A stretch of 63,946 nt of DNA, filler included, from Collodictyon triciliatum (lineage: Eukaryota), in the NCBI GenBank assembly GCA_043381765.1. It is 7 parts of 7 records of this genome, joined end to end, with 100 filler letters (N's around TTAATTAATTAA, not from the genome) between each part and the next. Parts side by side here need not be neighbours in the genome. Positions count along the whole stretch, not along the records: positions 10,098 to 20,085 come from JBHJMP010002838.1; 6 more parts are not named here. One strand, 5' to 3'. Position 1 is the stretch's first letter, and the number at the start of each line of letters is the position of its first letter. This document shows positions 11,621-26,900 of the stretch, piece by piece. Under the pieces are notes generated by a model. It saw only the letters and a list, made by a program, of their open reading frames with translations, searched no databases and was not told the origin of the DNA. Both the position numbers and the translations under genes were made by a program.

Positions 11621-14600
11621 TCACCGACGGATGATAACCTCCGGTTCTGGGGCGTTTCTGGGTGATTGGGGCAGCGGAGCAATCTGATTGTTTGCCATTC
11701 GACTGGGAGCTAGAATCGAAATAGATGAGTGCGAACGTATCTAGTTTATATATGTTAAATCGCACAAAGAAGTGGGATACAACGAATGAATATGTGAGAG
11801 GATAGGGCGATGGACAGTTCGATGCATTCGTGAAAAAAATCAAAGAAATAAAAATAAAAAACCGCAAAAGTGTGATGTATGTGTCTTACGCCGTGAATAT
11901 TGCACATTCGAATTGCGCGCCAGTTTAATGAGTTTCATCACATCATCTGTGAGACTTTCTTGCATCCGAAGTAATTCTGTATTGGTTGCGTCGGAATGAA
12001 TCCACGTAATGGTGCAATTTATTTGTAGAGAAAAATGCATTCGATGTGAGAAAAATAAACAAGTGACAAAGTTTCGCGGTGCAAGAAGTTGAAGCAACAA
12101 ACCTTCTCTTCTCTTCTTGGAAAATGGACTCAGAATCATGAGCTGGGTAATGTTATTAGTAAGTTTGATAGCGGTCTAGGACACTAATCAGAGAATCTCG
12201 ATTGAAACACACGAACAAAAGGACATATTCTAAACACTTACTAATGGAGGCAAAGATTTCAAGTATCTCATGCATCTTTCATTCACTTTGACCGTCATAA
12301 ATGAAAAGAAAGGAAGGCCAACCAAAACAACGAATGGCCAGACCCATCTAATAATTCGGCAATACTTAGAGGCCACTTCGAAAACAGACAATGACGTACA
12401 ATTATAGTTGACTTACTTGAAAGGCCCGTCACAGTAAATAGCGACAAACACAAAGCTTAGACCCGTATATATCAAGTATAAGATAGGTAAAACAGCAAAA
12501 CTGACAATTAATTTGTAACTAGCAACCTAATGTACGATAAGTTTTATTTTATCACAAATATTCTCTTGTGTTCTTTTTTAAAAAAGAAATCAGAGAAATA
12601 ATAGAAGATCGGTAACGTTCCTATTTTAAATCATATGTGCCCGAGTATTTTACAAATGTATATACCACATCTTTTCCCTCTATCTTGACATTCGAATTTG
12701 CTTTTGCCTGTTTCATTTCGCGAACTGCAAATGAGCCAATATATTAAGAGAGTAAGAAATAGGTGGAGGTATATGAAGAAGAAAAGTATGTGCAACTTTC
12801 AATTTAAATCCTTAGAAAAGAAAAAAGAAAAAAAAGAAGAGTATATGAATAATTCAAAGAAAAATCAAAGCAGAACCCGACAATACTTGACATGCATAGG
12901 CTGCAGGCGCATTGATTAATAGACCAGGAAAAGCCAATAACAACATCAGAATTATACTTCCCAATCTAATCAAGAAAATGTTATTTCAAGCATTATATTT
13001 CTGACGAAATTACGAGGTTTTCGAAAGAAAAAGGTCTTAACTTCCTTTGTGTGCTCCAAAAAAAAAAGGCTTTCAATAAATAGTAAAAAGGGAATACGAT
13101 TGCTATTATATATTATCTACAACATGCAGGTTACTGTTCTTATCAACGCTCTGGATACCACTTACTATCGAATATGGAATATCATATTTATAATAATTTT
13201 GAAGTAAAAAAAGAAAATCACCTCTCAACATTTATTAGAAGAAAGTCGATGCTAATTGTCATACTTTTTGTCTTTTTTTGCTTTGTTTTTAAATTAAAAG
13301 GGAGATAGTCACCTAAAAAGAATGAGTGGAACAGCTACAAAATAGGATGTTGCGAAGTGTTTAACTTGTTCCTGCTTCAAACCATATGCCTGGAGTTTTT
13401 TGTGGTAGTCAAGTAGTCTATTTTGGCGACATATTTGCGATGAGATAAGAAGGACGTATCGATTAAAAAAAAAATGCTTATTTTAAAAATAATATAAAAA
13501 GAGGGAGAGGAGGAAGAACCATATACCAGAAGACTATGAACCTGTTTTTCAAAAGACCAAACTCAGGATTTATATTATTGCTTTTGAACACATATGATAG
13601 TTGCCTCAACAGCTAGTGAATATATCATTAGCACACCAAAAATCAGATCTAGTTTCATTTCCAAAGAGATAACTTCTTTATACGCCCCAGCGCTCCAGAC
13701 TTACCAGGGCTCTTTCTGCTGGCGTGGTCCTCGTTCCAGATTCGTTCTAAATCAAAACATAGCCAAAACATATAAAAATTATGATTGGTCATGATTACAT
13801 TTTAAAACAGAAGAATAATATGCAAGGAAGAAGATATGGATATATCCTAGTAAATCAAGTTTCTGACTCATATCAACGTATTGGCTACCTGATATAATCT
13901 ACGTGCGAGATGAAATGCAGACAACTCAGCATAAGACGAAGTGGTCAGGGTAACAGCCTCCAATGCCTGTTTTATAGTGGATAAAAATTCTCTAGATGCA
14001 GATAAATAATCTGATTAATGATAAATAAGAACGAAATATATACGATTTTTTTTCCTTTATTCGATTCTACGAAATATATGCGATAATTGAATATTATGAC
14101 CAAGAAAGTAATTATAATCACAACTACCGGTATGCTTTCCTTCTATCCGTTCGATAAAGCTCCATAAGTTCATCTTCGGGAGTAACGATGATGGGAGAAC
14201 CGAATTCGATGACAACCTTCAAAAAATAAAGATTATATGAAAGTGTAATTTATAATTTTGATATACGTATACATTTCGACAAAATCTGCGACTTTATTGG
14301 GGAAAAAAACTTGTTTTTTTTTCTTTTTACTTTATTTTCTTCTATTGGAAGGGTACCTGGCTTCTGAACCGATGCCCCTCAAAATATGTGAATCCACAGG
14401 GCACAACAACTGAGTCGCGCTGGTATTTATGGACAAATCCAAGAGACATAACCGCTATGCCAACTTTGAGAGGTAACAACTCCTGCAATATAGGTGATGC
14501 TTCTGGTTACATGTTTTCTTCGGATACAGGATAGTTTTTAATCGCATGGGTCACTTTTTTGTGATTTTTTTAAAATATCCACCAGCAATAAGGATACTAA

Positions 14601-15688
14601 TAACAATAAGTATATAAAAATACTCATGATAATACTGATGGCAATAACCATAATAATCATAATTAGTTTTGATTAAGAAATATTACATTAGTATATATAG
14701 TTAAAAGCGACATAATATCGTTGAGAATTTTGGCAAATGATTTGTTTTTTAACATACCGGTCGATCGTGCGAGCCGCCCTGACATATTATCGAGTGACGA
14801 TACCATTCATGCAATTTTCAAGCAGGATTAGCAATTAGAATAATGGTATGAAAATAATTGCATTATACCGAATAAGTTATGAACAATGTTATGAGAGCTG
14901 CGATGAATTTATTGATTATGTATAGCACACTACATACCTCTGGGAATATTCCGATGCAACCGTCTGCGTCTAAACACTTCCAAACGGCATCAAACAGTTT
15001 CGATTGGTCAACTTTTTTTGTTACCTTGTAGGGAAGATTTGATATTTGCATTTCACACTCTTCCTCAAGGACGGCTTCGGTATCTGACAGTACCTCGCTA
15101 ATCTGAAATTGTTGGGTTATTTCATGAGGATTATTTGGCGGATATATTGATTAGAGTTATCTTGATTTTTTTTCTGAGGGAAATATTGCCTTCAGAGGTA
15201 AATCTGCTGCTGCAACCATTAGACTCCAACCCGGCCCAGCCTCGGTGGTAAATCGCGTCTCAATCCCAATTAGCTTTTTCCCAACAACACTAATCAGCCC
15301 TATTATATGTATATGCATATAACATTTCTTCATTAAATACTCCTGATTCAATCAATATACAAAAACAAACAAAAACAAATAACAAATAATAAATAACAAA
15401 AACAAAAACAAAAGCAAAAACAAAAACAAAAACAAAACAACCCATCTTAACATGAATTGATTAATCTAGACTGATCTCCTTTGAATTGAATAAAGGGAAA
15501 TGTATAGGCTAATCTCAAGATGGCGAAATGTATATATGGAGACAAGAGAATATGGAAGAAGAGTGCTACCTGACCCTCGCTGTGCACGATCTTGTGGACG
15601 AACAACCGGCAAGGCTCGCATCTGTCTTCCGAACCAACCTAAGAATTTTCTTCGCATGGTTTTGTCAGCTGCAACGAAGCTGATTGGG
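11621..15688 (-). CDS. Glycerol-3-phosphate/dihydroxyacetone-phosphate acyltransferase, GPT2/SCT1 type, 5'-partial
   Basis: Spliced motifs ALPVVRPQD, PKVDQS-like TKKVDQSKLF, GIFPE|GGSHDRP|ELLPLKVGIAVM, VVPCGFTYFEGHRFRS, VVIEFGSP and NSNVKIEGKDV|VASYKLIV followed by TM helices. Includes a 21-nt exon at 14758-14778. The 5' end lies in the gap 15980-16546. Confidence 0.88.
14047..14068 (-). mobile_element. 22-nt ultra-truncated retroelement 3' end in an acyltransferase intron
   Basis: Reverse complement AGAATCGAATAAAGG(A)7, flanked by ACGAAATATAT(A/G)CGAT direct repeats at 14031-14046 and 14069-14084 (15/16 identical). Confidence 0.8.
15479..15502 (+). mobile_element. Old, degenerate truncated copy of the same retroelement 3' end
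   Basis: CTTTGAATTGAATAAAGGGAAA matches CTTTGAATCGAATAAAGGAAAA at 20/22. Flanks TCTAGACTGATCTC (15465-15478) and TATAGGCTAATCTC (15503-15516) match at 11/14. Confidence 0.55.
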
Positions 15689-15866
15689 CTGTAGTTGTAA
15701 TTCGTAAAAAAAAAAAAATCGTAAATAATCGTATACCAAGTTAAGTTTATGTACTTTTTCTTTAAATAAAAGGTATTTTGTGTGGGACAATACCTCAAAA
15801 ACTAAAAGAAAGAATTAGTTCTTATGATATAAATGAAGATGAAAATAAAGACTATGACTAAGACTG

Positions 15867-15979
15867 TGATTATGATTATGATTATGATTATGATTATGAT
15901 TATGATTATGATTATGATTATGATTATGATTATGATTATGATTATGATTATGATTATGATTATGATTATGATTATGATT
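15867..15979. repeat. (TGATTA)n microsatellite
   Basis: Direct reading; runs into an N gap. Confidence 0.95.
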
Positions 15980-16564
15980 NNNNNNNNNNNNNNNNNNNNN
16001 NNNNNNNNNNNNNNNNNNNNNNNNNNNNNNNNNNNNNNNNNNNNNNNNNNNNNNNNNNNNNNNNNNNNNNNNNNNNNNNNNNNNNNNNNNNNNNNNNNNN
16101 NNNNNNNNNNNNNNNNNNNNNNNNNNNNNNNNNNNNNNNNNNNNNNNNNNNNNNNNNNNNNNNNNNNNNNNNNNNNNNNNNNNNNNNNNNNNNNNNNNNN
16201 NNNNNNNNNNNNNNNNNNNNNNNNNNNNNNNNNNNNNNNNNNNNNNNNNNNNNNNNNNNNNNNNNNNNNNNNNNNNNNNNNNNNNNNNNNNNNNNNNNNN
16301 NNNNNNNNNNNNNNNNNNNNNNNNNNNNNNNNNNNNNNNNNNNNNNNNNNNNNNNNNNNNNNNNNNNNNNNNNNNNNNNNNNNNNNNNNNNNNNNNNNNN
16401 NNNNNNNNNNNNNNNNNNNNNNNNNNNNNNNNNNNNNNNNNNNNNNNNNNNNNNNNNNNNNNNNNNNNNNNNNNNNNNNNNNNNNNNNNNNNNNNNNNNN
16501 NNNNNNNNNNNNNNNNNNNNNNNNNNNNNNNNNNNNNNNNNNNNNNAAAAAAAAAAAAAAAAAG

Positions 16565-16632
<68 letters not shown>

Positions 16633-17020
16633 TCAACTGTGGTATTAATACCTCTATATTATATAGGTATTAACACCACATCAACTAAAAACATTTTTCT
16701 CTTTTTTTTCTTTTTCTGCTATTTTATATTATTGGGGGAGGGGTCAGAATTGTGTGGCTGGGCGAAGACTTAGAGTATATCCGCGACCTTTTGGGACTTT
16801 CCACCAGGTCAGCTAGATAGTAAAGAAAAGAGTAGAAAAGAAAAGTAAGGAAAGAATAGAAATGACCTTTAAAAGTTATTCTGCAGCCGCAAAGATCACA
16901 GGCATAGGATTGGAGCTGGATTAATGCGTGTGCAATGTTGCTATTCTTCTGGAATTTATAATATTTCATGACTCATCTCAGCTGATCGGCGATTCAAAGA
17001 AGTACTCATCATTTTAATCC

Positions 17021-17277
17021 TTCTTTATATGATTTTAAGTGCAGCGAGGTTATGCCATACAAAGGGTCGAGATGGGTGCGCACGGCAGAGTGCAAACGCG
17101 AGTAGGGGAAGATACTACTGTGGAGAGGCTAGCACTGGAAAGAAATCAGTGATAGCGAGTTGGTCAGGTGGGCGTCTCAACTGGTTGATTGACTGCGTGG
17201 GTAGCAGCGGTTGGATATGCTGTGGGAGATATCGCACGACACATTCCCATTGATAAGGTAATTCTTGGGTAATTTTT
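17021..17277 (-). mobile_element. Diverged, longer 3' fragment of the retroelement (ORF end plus 3' UTR)
   Basis: 17038-17186 is 134/149 identical to the reverse complement of 17305-17453 without indels. Decayed tail at 17021-17037. The open frame KITQELPYQW...RRPPDQLAITDFFPVLASPQ* ends at 17115. 5' boundary and TSD are uncertain. Confidence 0.7.
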
Positions 17278-17304
17278 TAGAAGCCATTATAGATTATTTG
17301 CCCT

Positions 17305-17477
17305 AACCAGTTGGGACACCCACCTGACCAGCTCGCTACCACTGATTTCTTTCCAGTGCTACCCTCTCCACGGTAGTGTCTTCTCCTACTCGCGTTTGCT
17401 CTCTCCCATGCGCTCCCATCCCGCCCCTTTGTATGGCATAACCTCGCTACACTTTGAATCGAATAAAGGAAAAAAAA
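17305..17477 (+). mobile_element. 173-nt 5'-truncated non-LTR retroelement copy with poly(A) and perfect 16-bp TSD
   Basis: ATAGATTATTTGCCCT at 17289-17304 and 17478-17493. The insert ends TTTGAATCGAATAAAGG(A)8, with AATAAA at 17462-17467. Confidence 0.85.
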
Positions 17478-17859
17478 ATAGATTATTTGCCCTGCCGCTT
17501 TACCTGGATTAAAAAATATTTAAATTACAGAAATAGAAGTAAATTATGTACCCAATTTTATCCATATTTGGCGTATTCCATGATTAACTCTCTTTTTTTC
17601 AGTTTCCACGGTACTTTGTCGGTTGCGCTATTTTTTCTATAAAAACCATCAAGCCCTTTGTGGGCAAGCCCTTCTGGCACCCTGGCGAAAGGGACGGTCA
17701 TCAGTAAACAAAAAACAAAAAACAACACAAAGAAACAAAAAGAGAGAAAAAAACAGGAGGAAAAACCACAATCAAACCTGGGCATGAGGGGTGCAAGAAA
17801 ATGTTCTGTGAAGTTCATATACCCTTTTACTTTCAATAGTTTCCCTGACATAGTGGATC

Positions 17860-19501
17860 ATGTCTGACGAGCTTGAAGAAAAAAGAGAAGCGAAGGAGCT
17901 AGTAGCTAAAAATGAAGTTCATGAGAATAGTGGAGAGATAATTGAAGAAAAAAAGAGTGTAAGACGGCAGAAGATTTCAAAATCCCAGCACTTGTACTAC
18001 GAAGATATTGAAATGTATTGTTTGCCCCGTGAAGTTGGGCGCTCAAAAGATTTGCGCAGCTTAGAGGTTCATCATGCTGCATTAGAGTTCCCCCTTGAAG
18101 TGCTCAAACTAACCCGCCTCGAAAGGATTGTTTTCCACCATAACGAAATATCATCGATACCGCTTTCCATAACGAATCTGAAAAGACTATACCACTTACA
18201 AATATCGACGAATCATCTTAGCATGATTCCACCATACATATCTACCCTAGTCAGGCTCGAACATATCGATTTCTCCTATAACCAAATACGTTGTATCCCA
18301 AGAGAGATATCTGCCCTGGACTGCCTTACCTATCTCAACTTAGCCGAAAATTGTTTGTCAAATATCTCTATCGGAATATCGTCGCTGACCTCTCTTGAAT
18401 ATCTTAATCTTGCCCTGAATCATTTACAACACCTTACACCAGCGATATCGGCACTGAAATCCCTTACTTACCTCACCATCGAGGGAAATCAGGCAACAAT
18501 TTTAAATCTACTTACGCAATTCCTCGCTGCACTCTGAATCGAATAAAGGAAAAAAAATAATCTACTTACTAAATTAAATGATTATCCCTTACATTTTTTT
18601 CAAATGACATACAGATTACCCGCATTCCCCCTCACGTCACGAATCTGGACAACATCAGGACTTTTGTATTGTGCGAGTCCCTGGGAGTCAATAGCGTGCC
18701 TCGTTTACTTATGGAAAAATTTTGCTTTTCAAGATACTCAGAACCTGGAAAAGAAAGGGCTAAGAAGCTCATGAAACTCCTTGAACCCTTCAACACGGTA
18801 ATTCGAACCATCACAAACAATTTAAAATTCAACTCATCCACCGACTTCATGGATTAGATTGAGCCACCGATCAGGAGGAGATGGACACCCACCAGTGCGC
18901 AAATCAAGTTCAAAACACTTAGCCTACATAAAATGAAGCTCACTTCTTTACCGGAAAATATTTCCAAATTGACCAATCTTACCTACTTGGACATCAGTGG
19001 AAACAAGGTATGTTGGTCTTTCCAGATAATATTGAAACTTTACAAAATAAATCAAAACAGCATAAAAAGAAAGAAAAGAAAGCTTATCTCTACGGTTTAG
19101 TTCCGAGATTTCCCCGAATACATATGTGCCATTCCATCCATTGTGGGTTTAGATATATCAAACAATAAGGTATATTCTGAATTTTGACATTTTTATGAAA
19201 CATTGTTCGTTATGCATGCGTATATTGACTTGTAACGGCTCAGCTCACGATTGTTCCCGAATCGATCACCCGGCTCCAAAGTCTTAAGCTGTTGGACCTG
19301 TCCAACAATAAGGTATTTCAGCAGAATTTTAATGCTTGAAACGGCATCATGAAGTTATGTAATCATAAATTGGTACAGATATTCAAGCTGCCTGAGTTCA
19401 AGGAGCCAACCGAAGAGACAAGCTTGACCCCGATACTCGATGAGATCTCCCCAGACTGTGGAGATAGTGGGAAGAAAAGACAGCGATTAAGTGGACACTA
19501 G
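17860..19501 (+). CDS. Leucine-rich repeat protein (23-aa LxxLxLxxNxL repeats), 6 exons
   Basis: Exon 17860-18492, GC-AG intron 18493-18614, further GT-AG introns, TAG at 19499-19501. Repeats such as LTSLEYLNLALNHLQHLTPAISA. Confidence 0.85.
18516..18558 (+). mobile_element. 43-nt truncated retroelement 3' end in intron 1 of the LRR gene
   Basis: GCAATTCCTCGCTGCACTCTGAATCGAATAAAGG(A)8T, flanked by AATCTACTTAC at 18505-18515 and 18559-18569. Matches the tail of the 17305 copy. Confidence 0.82.
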
Positions 19502-23954: not shown

Positions 23955-26900
23955 ATGGAAAAACCTGCGCCTATGCAAGCCAGCTCACCCGCCCTGCCTC
24001 CAAACGCTTCGCCCTTCACTCGCTCGATTCGCCGTTCCACTTCATTTAGCTTAAACCCCATCCAGGAACAGTGCGTTTTGCTCTTGTTTTCTTTCTTTCC
24101 TGTTGGTGATTTTTCCTATAAGTACCTCATAAAAGGCTCTTCTTTTTTCTTTTTCGTAAAGTGGCCCGTCCCCAGCACCAAGCGAAGACCCCATTCTGGA
24201 GGCTGCGGTCTCCGAGTAATTTTTTTCTATTTATCCTGTCACTTCGTCAATGGATAACATTTTTCTTTTTCGTCATTTTCACTTTTTCGTCTCTTTCGTC
24301 TTTTCTTCTTTTTCGTCTTTTTCGTATTTCTCATCTTTCTCGTCTATCTCATCTTTTTCCTCTTTTTCCTCTTTCTCATCTTTTTCATCTTTTTCATCTC
24401 CTTCGTCTTTTTCGTCTTTTTCGTCTTTTTCGTCTTTTTCGTCTTTTTCGTCTTTTTCGTCTTTTTCGTCGAATTCGATTTTTAATCTTTTCTTCTGCTA
24501 ATCCTGATGCCCATAAAAACGACCCATTCAGATCTGACCCTACAGAAAGCAGCTCAGTTTCTGTGAGCGGACCCGACACGCGCCCTCCATCTCGTTCGTT
24601 TTATAGTCTGCCTTCATCCACATCGATCTCCAATCTGGCCGATGCGAACATTCCGCCCGGTTCAGCTAATCCCAACAACCGATACCGCCAAGTACGCCGG
24701 TTGTCTGTCCAATTCCAAAGCAATACTGACATTACTAAAGCTGGACACGAGCCGCAAGCGGAGTTGGACTTGATTGAGATGCAAGAGTTTCTGCAAAAGA
24801 TGTTAGAGGAGCAGGATATGTTTGTGGAGTCCAAGAAGAAGTGATATTTTAATCACGTTCGTTATCATCACCCCTCCTTTTCTTGTCTTTTTTTTTAGGG
24901 AGGTATGCTTTTCATGACTAAAAACCATGCCGCTGCCCCTTAGTATTAATGTGTCTGTGGAAAAAGCTCTGCAACTATTGATTGACGACTATGAGACCAA
25001 TATTCATATTATGAGATTGAAGCTCGAGCCAGAACTTAAAAGATTATCTGAAATTGTGATGAATGAGGTTTGAATTGTTTTAGTTTTTCATATTTTTGTG
25101 CATTATTTGAAAGAAGTTATTAAAATCAAATTCATTCATTCATTTAGATTGAGATTTACATGAGAATAAAAGACCAGCACCACAACACCCTGTCAAAAAT
25201 AAGAAATGCGATCTCATTTATTCACAACCAAACATCAATCAAAACAAAAGTCATTATGGGAAAAGGTAAGAAATTTGTCATCTTCGGACTGCGATTTCTG
25301 TTGCGATTTCTTTTTTTTTCTTTACACTTTTTCTTCGTGCACCCGCGTTGCTATTCCATCATCGCAGTGTTCCATACATGCTTTCTTTTTTCTTAATATC
25401 GCCATTTGCCAGATGGAGAGGATGACAGTTCACACGATGAGAAAAGTGACCCTGCCATTCAGGCCATGATAGCAGTATGTAGAAAAATACGTCACTGATT
25501 TATTATCTTTTTTTTTTTTTTATTCCTCCCTAGATTTCTCCCTCTAGTTTTTTTTATGAAATTTTCATCTTAGGATTTGAAAGAAAAGAATCAGAAACTT
25601 CAACTACAACTTGAAATTGTTACTGGCCTTCGTGAGAGAGAGGCTCGAGAAAAGTCAAGAGTGACTGTTTTAAATGCCAAATTATCCACTGAGGTACTTC
25701 ATGAAGACAGATTGTATCTGTAAATTATCATTATTTCCCATAATTATGTGCTGTGTCTCTTACATAGCTTAATCGTATCGTTTATCGCATAACTATTTTA
25801 TTCCGCGATTTACTGGATGACGCATTTATTTTTAAATTGAAGGTCGACAATCTAAAGACAAATTTGGAAGTTGAACTGTCTCACTCAAAGGCATTACGTA
25901 TATTGCTTCATTCACTTATTCAACAGAGCCACTCTAACCGGATACACAGCAGTTTTTCTAACCCTTTTTTATATCATTTCTACTGCGCCACTTTTCCAGA
26001 GACACAACTTGATGAGATGACAGAAACTTGCAAGGCTTTGAAAAAACGCATTAAAATGGTTTATTTTTAAGTGGAAAGCTCATCTGAAATTAACTTTTTG
26101 TATCCAAAAAAAAATTCAAATGGATTCTTTTAATTTTAAGGATTTGATATGTATGCTGTTTTTTGAAAATAAAAATATAATATGCTATTAAAATAGGAAA
26201 TCAAATCGCGGGCGCGCGAGACGTTCTCTTTAAGCGACGTCGAAACAATCCCACGGTCAACAAGTCACCATGATTTCGGCTCATCTCAGCTCCCTTCAGT
26301 TTCTCCACTGATTGAAGCCCTTGCAAGGTCAACCACCATACCTGAGGTACTTTCCATCTAGCAATCGTATACATCTGCCAAAAGGTCACTAGATATATGA
26401 AATTTGATTTCTCTGTCGTTAAATATCCTTCGAAACTCATGTTTGTAGAAGCTTGTCCAAGTACACGCAAAGAATAAGTCCATGGGAGAGGGATACTCCC
26501 CACTGTTGCAACAAACTCCAAAAATGACCGTAATTTTCTGTTCTACTATCAAAGTCCATTTTTTTCCTATTGAATTCTACCTTTGAATATTTTTTTACGG
26601 TTTTTTTTTTATTCTTCCTTTCAACTTTTGTGCATTTACGGTTTTTATGATAGAATCCATTCGAATGTTCATATATGTATGTTTTGGTTGGTAATCTAGT
26701 GGCCGATCAAGCTTTACTGATTAATTTTTTCTCTGGTAGAAATTCAGCCTTCCAGTGAAATCCATCACACCGTCCATGAAAAGCAAAAAGGAACCAGATT
26801 CTTTTGCATTGGGCACTATAAAAAGCTCCGGAACCATGACGTCGATATCAGAGGCTGCGCCGTATGTAGATTTCCTAGTAACTTACAGCTACCACTGGTT

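Follow-up and report, generated by a model that had tools for sequence, protein, structure and literature searches.

What causes the 5' truncation of LINEs is an open question, and the genome of Collodictyon triciliatum preserves thousands of natural end-points that can be read to the base. The question arises at 14031-18569 of the window, the whole 63,946-nt stretch that was analysed, in the part derived from JBHJMP010002838.1. A sequence-only reading of this locus had described five inserts sharing one 3' end. All five sites are indeed pieces of one L1-type LINE (family A) and come from its 3' tip, but the exact 14-mer 3' end was found in only three of the five, and the end of copy 3 has diverged. 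These copies, and two further tips in the window, are as follows (TSD, target-site duplication; rungs are the length classes described below).

14031..14046, minus strand: 3' TSD of copy 1; 16 bp, with 15/16 identity to its partner at 14069-14084
14047..14068, minus strand: copy 1, family A tip; 14 nt of element, one untemplated A at the 5' junction, and A7
15479..15502, plus strand: copy 2, aged 18-nt tip, first rung; 1 substitution, tail decayed
17023..17249, minus strand: copy 3, older, 227 nt; 89.9% identical to the copy in L031, 3' end diverged
17289..17304, plus strand: 5' TSD of copy 4; 16 bp, a perfect match to its partner at 17478-17493
17305..17477, plus strand: copy 4; 165 nt of element, then A8
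18505..18521, plus strand: 5' TSD of copy 5; 17 bp, with 15/17 identity to its partner at 18559-18575
18522..18558, plus strand: copy 5, 28-nt tip (18522-18549), second rung; tail A8T
26600..26632 (approximate), minus strand: tip of sister family B; ~24 nt and an A tail between short direct repeats
61150..61184 (approximate), plus strand, another scaffold: probable aged family A tip; ~20 nt and an A tail, with a 12/13-bp flanking repeat

Target duplications of 14-17 bp flank four of the five copies, where four sets of 11-16 bp had been proposed. For copy 2, the 11/14 match of the flanks (15465-15478 and 15503-15516) stands as first read. Copy 3, initially given as at least 165 nt from 17021, is a piece of the element but covers 17023-17249; an A tail and a TSD were looked for at this copy and neither was found. 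Copy 5 had been taken for a 43-nt insert with an 11-bp TSD, and is better described as 28 nt plus tail between the 17-bp TSDs. It appears to lie in a GC-AG intron (18493-18614), predicted from the reading frame, of a leucine-rich-repeat gene. Copy 4 is 97.1% identical to a long copy and contains the final 24 codons of ORF2, the stop codon TAG (17374-17376) and a ~93-nt 3' UTR that terminates in AATAAAGG, with A8 after it. Copies 3 and 4 form an inverted pair; twin-priming inversion was rejected as their origin because they share a 3' segment yet differ by ~10%. The proposal that the insertions differ in age is borne out by TSD mismatches of 0, 1, 2 and 3, and by identities of 97% vs 90% to one long copy. 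The copies are best explained as dead-on-arrival insertions of a LINE of ~6 kb.

The shared motif is not a chance one, because a search of the assembly returned 1,419 exact 19-mers genome-wide vs 0 for the reversed control. In total, 4,704 family A tips were counted (control 20), one per 16 kb. The suggestion that the window contains an insertion hotspot is not supported: four tips were observed and 3.8 expected, uniform placement alone predicts ~14 genome-wide clusters of four within 4.5 kb, and measured clustering of tips was only 2-4-fold. Around the first 30 unselected loci, the flanking sequence contained no secondary exact copies, with ~1.5 expected, which argues against clustering at exact-match stringency. 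The accompanying statement that the other scaffolds lack copies was only partly right, given the probable aged family A copy and the sister-family tip listed above. Exact copies ending within 22 nt numbered ~960, as against roughly 80-150 first-look candidates for the element's internal parts. Unrelated A-tailed inserts were also sought de novo in 600 kb of sequence with a bias towards family A loci, which gave 121 candidates, 84 of them family A; 22 of the other 37 were dropped as low-complexity, and the remaining 15 included one family B tip and two of no known source. The stretch was partly present in 20 of the 21 sequencing runs listed, and half of its words were in none.

Extension in the 5' direction, as the sequence-only reading had recommended, led from the tips into long copies that reach both the RT and the endonuclease coding regions. 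Together with the A tails and TSDs, this supports target-primed insertion by a LINE; it also rejects a processed pseudogene of a host mRNA, whose 3' end this sequence is not. The predicted domain order is APE, RT, zinc. The APE endonuclease lies N-terminal to the RT (Pfam Exo_endo_phos, E 2.5e-12, in a 308-aa piece of copy L095), the RT matched RVT_1 (E 3.4e-17), and the C-terminal zinc-binding motif matched zf-RVT (E 1.6e-7). The best solved-structure match of the RT was human L1 ORF2p (E 3e-17, 65.9 bits over 259 aa), vs 3e-9 and 39.6 bits for R2. A HMMER search with the RT piece gave 11,077 homologs, and a word-indexed search with it among longer proteins gave none at E <= 0.001; the nearest full-length ORF2-like proteins were 32-35% identical and carried no names. 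Many copies have in common ~2 kb upstream of ORF2 with open stretches, from which a 171-aa piece had no Pfam match and only unnamed look-alikes at 0.92. Every family A copy seen carried stops, frameshifts or contig breaks, and one family B copy had ~750 open codons followed by a gap.

One hundred first-listed family A copies served as an unselected sample, and all 100 could be called. Each ended in an unusually short run of 5-15 A (mode 7-8), the search pattern itself having demanded at least five. A TSD was called in 62 copies (50 of them 15-18 bp); of these 62, 49 have T at position -1 and 42 have T at -2. The target is T|A-like, mostly TT|AA, and about seven A's are copied. With its APE domain, an RT closest to L1, the zinc motif, poly(A) and TSDs, family A can be assigned by these sequence features to the L1-type non-LTR retrotransposons. 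Tx1-type LINEs insert into one fixed target sequence. The 62 called TSDs were unrelated beyond T|A, which rejects a site-specific LINE of that type; the Tx1 type is named as target-specific in PMC3472496. A SINE with a tRNA-, 7SL- or 5S-derived head was likewise rejected, as the copies had no Rfam match (a scan of 13500-19500 gave one chance match, away from them), their 5' ends vary and their sequence is the LINE's own tip.

The truncation proved even more extreme than had been guessed. In the unselected sample, 73 of 100 copies kept <=22 nt of element (mode 18) and 89 kept <=50 nt, leaving 11 above 50 nt. Ends fell at 16-19 nt in 60 copies and at 23-25 nt in none, so that most insertions comprise 16-19 nt of the element and about 25-27 nt overall; 5' ends of the 18-nt class spread across 14-22 nt. 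Exact genome counts of nested 3' patterns (the last 12, 14, 17, 20, 23, 26 and 30 nt, each with A5) were 1608, 1419, 1230, 471, 349, 319 and 255. Per-base retention was 0.73 across 17-20, 0.97 across 23-26 and 0.95 across 26-30, and the second drop in retention had a P of 7e-6 vs the 0.97 background. Among longer family A copies (80 of the 349 matching 23 nt) the stop rate peaked at 28 (11 of 69 at risk) and 36 (4/40) and was 0 at 39-40. Family B (72 of 962 copies) had stop peaks at 22-23, 33-34 and 42, the 22-23 rung being low (stop rate 0.06-0.07), and its best period was 11 (p 0.001-0.004, period scan included). For B1 copies genome-wide, stops rose from 13/205 at 41 to 36/192 at 42 (p 2e-4). 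The sampled copies came from low-numbered contigs, and in them the second rung is stronger than genome-wide. The distance from TSD to TSD, an alignment-free measure, reproduced the same peaks.

End-points are not random: in both families they gather at fixed distances, and lengths on steps of ~10 bases may show how such elements are shortened during insertion. Three models can be set directly against each other: helically phased joining, a road-block on the RNA, and a template trimmed beforehand.

We favour the first, giving it slightly under an even chance: target-primed insertion would usually finish inside the first few turns of the helix, at positions in phase with it. The APE domain would nick the target and the RT would prime near the start of the poly(A). 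During cDNA synthesis ORF2p would still grip the RNA at its 3' end and the target at both of its ends, and the growing cDNA could be joined early to the upstream target end. If each turn of the RNA:cDNA hybrid offered one favoured point for joining, a ladder of ~9-11 nt would result, its phase and height set by the family, and escape into processive synthesis would be the minority outcome, as in the 11 of 100 family A copies above 50 nt. The stricter statement, that 5' truncation is quantised by cDNA-target joining once per turn, is put forward more tentatively; such joining would lead two families with unrelated tips each to leave a ladder of ~10 nt, with first rungs outnumbering all long copies. 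Short and longer copies have junctions of like type (extra nucleotides in 12/42 vs 11/44, p 0.81), pointing to one process. Against a ladder, each family has just three rungs and the third of A is weak; best-fit periods are 8-9 for A and 11 for B, with spacings in A of 10 and then 8; the phases of A and B lie ~5 nt apart, unexplained by tails (median 7 vs 8 A); and part of the 33-34 peak of B comes from a sub-family ending in a C-run. Body and tail length showed just a weak negative correlation (rho -0.29, p 0.065, n=41), which does not establish a strict ruler measured from the site of priming.

It is rather unlikely, yet deserves weight, that the RT instead stalls at 3' UTR RNA structure or a protein-bound site, as in stem-loop recognition by stringent-type LINEs, so that family-specific obstacles only seem periodic. 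A hairpin with its 3' base between -18 and -21 can form in family A, peaks are sharper by body length than by total length, and the tips of families A and C are alike over the last ~15 nt despite ORF2 DNA only ~65% identical. Human L1 ORF2p binds a stem-loop and ~15 nt of single-stranded RNA at its C-terminal segment, and unpairing of the stem shortened products (PMC10830416); some plant L1s retain a 3' stem-loop (PMC3472496). The tips nevertheless fold no better than shuffled sequence (z about 0), 58 long copies lacked compensatory changes, with just one wobble-compatible A/G variant, and the main stop of family B, at 42, lies in a stretch predicted to be unpaired or weakly paired. The R2 RT is reportedly not slowed by structure (PMC13000458). 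A fixed 18-nt hairpin as sole cause was rejected, with a fold energy of -0.3 kcal/mol (z about 0) and the stops at 28 and 36 and those of family B left unexplained.

Full reverse transcription of templates already shortened by the host, through 5'->3' cutting or trimming to footprints of ORF2p, ORF1p or poly(A)-binding factors in ~10-nt steps, or as 25-27-nt small RNAs, is improbable. It would suit the sharp lower edge (47 matches at 10 nt, with true 10-nt inserts in 3 of 12 inspected), the 25-27 nt of body plus tail in 27 of 41 short copies, and untemplated 5' nucleotides at ~27% of junctions vs 14.6% in truncated human L1 (PMC2912911). Copies of the 18-nt class, however, showed no excess of extra nucleotides over longer copies, family B has a median body of 34 nt and no 26-nt class, and by reading the sequences the six peaks had no common cut-site sequence. 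It is very unlikely that the 18-nt unit is a micro-SINE in its own right, or that selection and assembly acted on ordinary random truncation by purging or collapsing long copies. Long copies do often lie at contig ends or gaps (6/100 unselected, 14/80 longer copies) in an assembly of 14,576 contigs, but broken ones keep their 3' tips and entered the counts, and the troughs at 23-25 and 39-40 nt would be produced by neither selection nor assembly. The tip matches the LINE end exactly, its 5' ends range over 14-22 nt and it has no Rfam match, and a promoter would presumably not fit in 18 nt.

Early, helically phased joining has a partial analogy in the internal eliminated sequences (IESs) of Paramecium and Blepharisma, whose lengths peak every 10-11 bp, which is ascribed to helical geometry in a complex of both ends (PMC9942856). 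The likeness is one of analogy only: IESs are excised by a transposase, whereas here the insertions are A-tailed and TSD-flanked and a ladder would arise at insertion. The stringent-type LINEs LINE1-1_ZM and L1-1_CR, as described in PMC3472496, resemble family A in priming near the element body, a possible 3' hairpin and a terminal motif that is alike in families A and C; unlike them, the tips here neither folded better than shuffled sequence nor showed covariation, the B tip is unrelated and purine-rich, and no SINE partner was seen. Near-empty target-primed insertions also exist at NF1, as poly(A)-only or severely truncated L1-driven events, with six insertions clustered in 1.5 kb (PMC3219598). 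In contrast to the single poly(T) case there, tips here make up the majority of insertions, in thousands of copies of set length. No paper describing a tip-dominated or periodic truncation pattern was found, as judged from search results alone, with most subscription papers outside their scope. Human LINE-1 shares the APE-RT-zinc order, AATAAA adjoining the poly(A), the T|A target, blunt, microhomology and extra-nucleotide junctions, and a similar TSD peak (16-17 here vs 14-16; PMC2912911). The present element differs in its tail of ~7 A, in having 89 of 100 copies at <=50 nt and in its discrete stops ~10 nt apart. The survey of truncated human L1 applied a lower limit of 50 bp (PMC2912911), so a class of short tips could not have appeared there, and the usual length floors of repeat annotation would miss most insertion events in the C. 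triciliatum genome. If general, quantised truncation would be a built-in step of target-primed insertion, invisible to surveys with such a 50-bp floor.

The five places that had been read as one family are each a piece of one and the same element, the parent LINE of family A. The window comprises seven scaffolds of ~10 kb each, joined by linkers, and the cluster lies on G000:C2838, a contig of a 75.4 Mb assembly (14,576 contigs) of a eukaryote with introns. The features are as follows.

14047-14068, copy 1: 14 nt of element, preceded by an extra A and followed by A7; 16-bp flanking repeats, matching at 15/16.
15479-15502, copy 2: an aged 18-nt tip (short 3'-end piece); flanking repeats matching at 11/14.
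17023-17249, copy 3: a piece with a diverged 3' end; a TSD was looked for here and none was found.
17305-17477, copy 4: 165 nt of element and A8; a perfect 16-bp flanking repeat.
18522-18558, copy 5: 28 nt plus tail as best reading; 17-bp flanking repeats, matching at 15/17.
18493-18614 (+): putative GC-AG intron in a leucine-rich-repeat gene, holding copy 5.

The 3' end claimed to be common to all five is an exact 14-mer in three of them, but not in the other two. The intron is proposed because the frame that encodes the leucine-rich repeats (Pfam LRR_8, E 9e-18) resumes in phase on its other side. The window also holds two intron-free open frames with many hydrophobic stretches, of 600 aa (48251-50053 (-)) and 634 aa (61655-63559 (-)); a Pfam search of both gave no match.

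Going 5', copies elsewhere take in a zinc motif, then RT, then APE endonuclease, and enter an ORF1-like region; overlapping copies pieced together give an element of ~6 kb. The 5' extension proposed in the sequence-only reading thus arrived at RT and endonuclease, but a single complete copy was not seen. Pfam matches were RVT_1, zf-RVT and Exo_endo_phos, the closest relative with a solved structure is human L1 ORF2p, and the closest full-length proteins (32–35% identity) are unnamed. Judged by the sequence features tested, the element is an L1-type LINE. It has two sister families in the same genome. Family B has ~66% DNA identity and a purine-rich tip unrelated to that of A; one of its loci, L274 (G000:C5561:2920-5167), carries ~750 open codons, spanning endonuclease and most of RT, before an assembly gap. 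In family C (L275, G000:C3382), ORF2 DNA is ~65% identical to A and the last ~15 nt are similar. The motif Q-x-x-I-x-D-F/Y-F closes ORF2 in all three families (window 17305-17376 (+); L031, L274, L275), and its codons are present in copies 3 and 4; we take it to resemble a PCNA-binding PIP box. Long copies (L124-L130 and L132, L135, L137, L145, L148) form two groups with common upstream DNA (1.7 kb or more in one, 0.9 kb or more in the other, 85–95% identity), probably segmental duplications with the LINE or alternative 5' regions. Upstream in one group is a 368-aa open frame resembling a multi-pass membrane protein.

A motif search across the assembly revealed abundant further copies: 1,419 exact matches to a 19-mer (control 0), and 4,704 to a 17-mer at a tolerance of two mismatches (control 20), or one per 16 kb. 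The cluster had been suggested to mark an insertion hotspot, a claim that is not borne out. The window holds four tips as compared with 3.8 expected; four inside 4.5 kb at one fixed place has P 2e-4, but ~14 such clusters are expected genome-wide if placement is uniform. Tip placement is nevertheless patchy, by 2–4-fold, without this being a special site. Among the first 100 places listed, gaps of up to 1 kb numbered 7 (1.9 expected) and of up to 2 kb, 10 (3.7 expected). The flanks of family A loci (82 kb) held 13 further tips and those of family B loci (82 kb) 10, against ~5 expected in each; the family A flanks contained no further exact 19-mers.

Family A lengths were called in the first 100 of the 1,419 exact 19-mer places, all of which were fetched. 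Element length was 14–22 nt in 73 copies, 16–19 nt in 60, 23–25 nt in none and at most 50 nt in 89; six ended at a contig edge or gap. TSDs, mostly 15–18 bp at T|A sites, were called in 62 (54 by a stricter rule), and the median tail was 7 A. Genome-wide counts of nested patterns agree with these lengths: the last 12, 14, 17, 20, 23, 26 and 30 nt matched 1608, 1419, 1230, 471, 349, 319 and 255 times, a per-base retention of 0.94, 0.95, 0.73, 0.91, 0.97 and 0.95 between successive patterns. A low shoulder at 12–13 nt was judged by eye (~6/10), and 10-nt inserts were rare (3 of 12 inspected). The shortest tip seen, L183 of family A, has 6 nt + A6 within a perfect 17-bp TSD. Two other A-tailed inserts, L003 (51 nt) and L187 (13 nt), have TSDs of 16–18 bp and no exact match to any of the three LINE tips; they are possibly trans-mobilised RNAs or other families.

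Family A stops, read from 80 of the 349 copies with a 23-nt match, most of them drawn by contig order, peaked at 28 nt and more weakly at 36, with a period of 8 (p 0.001–0.011). The family B tip has 962 exact matches. In 72 copies taken in contig order, lengths (median 34, at most 50 nt in 64) peaked at 22–23, 33–34 and 42 nt, with a period of 11 (p 0.001–0.004); both tests cover the scan of periods 7–14. The peaks recur when only the distance between TSD copies is measured, and B1 copies genome-wide stop at 41 in 13/205 and at 42 in 36/192. A C-run sub-family swells one family B peak.

The hallmarks of TPRT are present, with short tails, and ends are non-random, ~8–11 nt apart in two families. 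Short and longer copies have like junctions, so a single process is likely. As the cause of the stops we tentatively favour early joining, in which ORF2p would still grip the cDNA and the upstream end of the target when the two are joined, with the helical turn of the hybrid setting the phase. PCNA tethering of ORF2 via the putative PIP box could be relevant to such phasing. Against it, there are only three rungs (preferred stop lengths) per family, the periods of A and B are unequal, we cannot explain a ~5-nt phase offset between families, and one family B peak is due in part to the C-run sub-family.

A road-block to RT at a protein-held 3' structure seems less likely. It would be consistent with the L1 ORF2p structure, in which ~15 nt of the RNA is single-stranded and a stem lies at the C-terminal segment (PMC10830416), and a possible hairpin base lies at -18 to -21, but predicted folds are no better than shuffles. 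Trimming of RNA templates before reverse transcription is more doubtful still: it accounts for the sharp lower length edge but not for the extra nucleotides, which are equally frequent in short and longer copies.

LINE truncation is already known, as are single insertions of poly(A) alone and locally clustered insertions, the last two being documented in one report (PMC3219598). Among the papers listed by our literature search, none was on tip-dominated or periodic truncation. One human survey left out inserts <50 bp (PMC2912911), and an in vitro study of R2 observed no preferred truncation sites (PMC13000458). For helically phased early joining, the spacing of LINE stops has an analogy in the 10–11-bp periodicity of ciliate IES lengths (PMC9942856).
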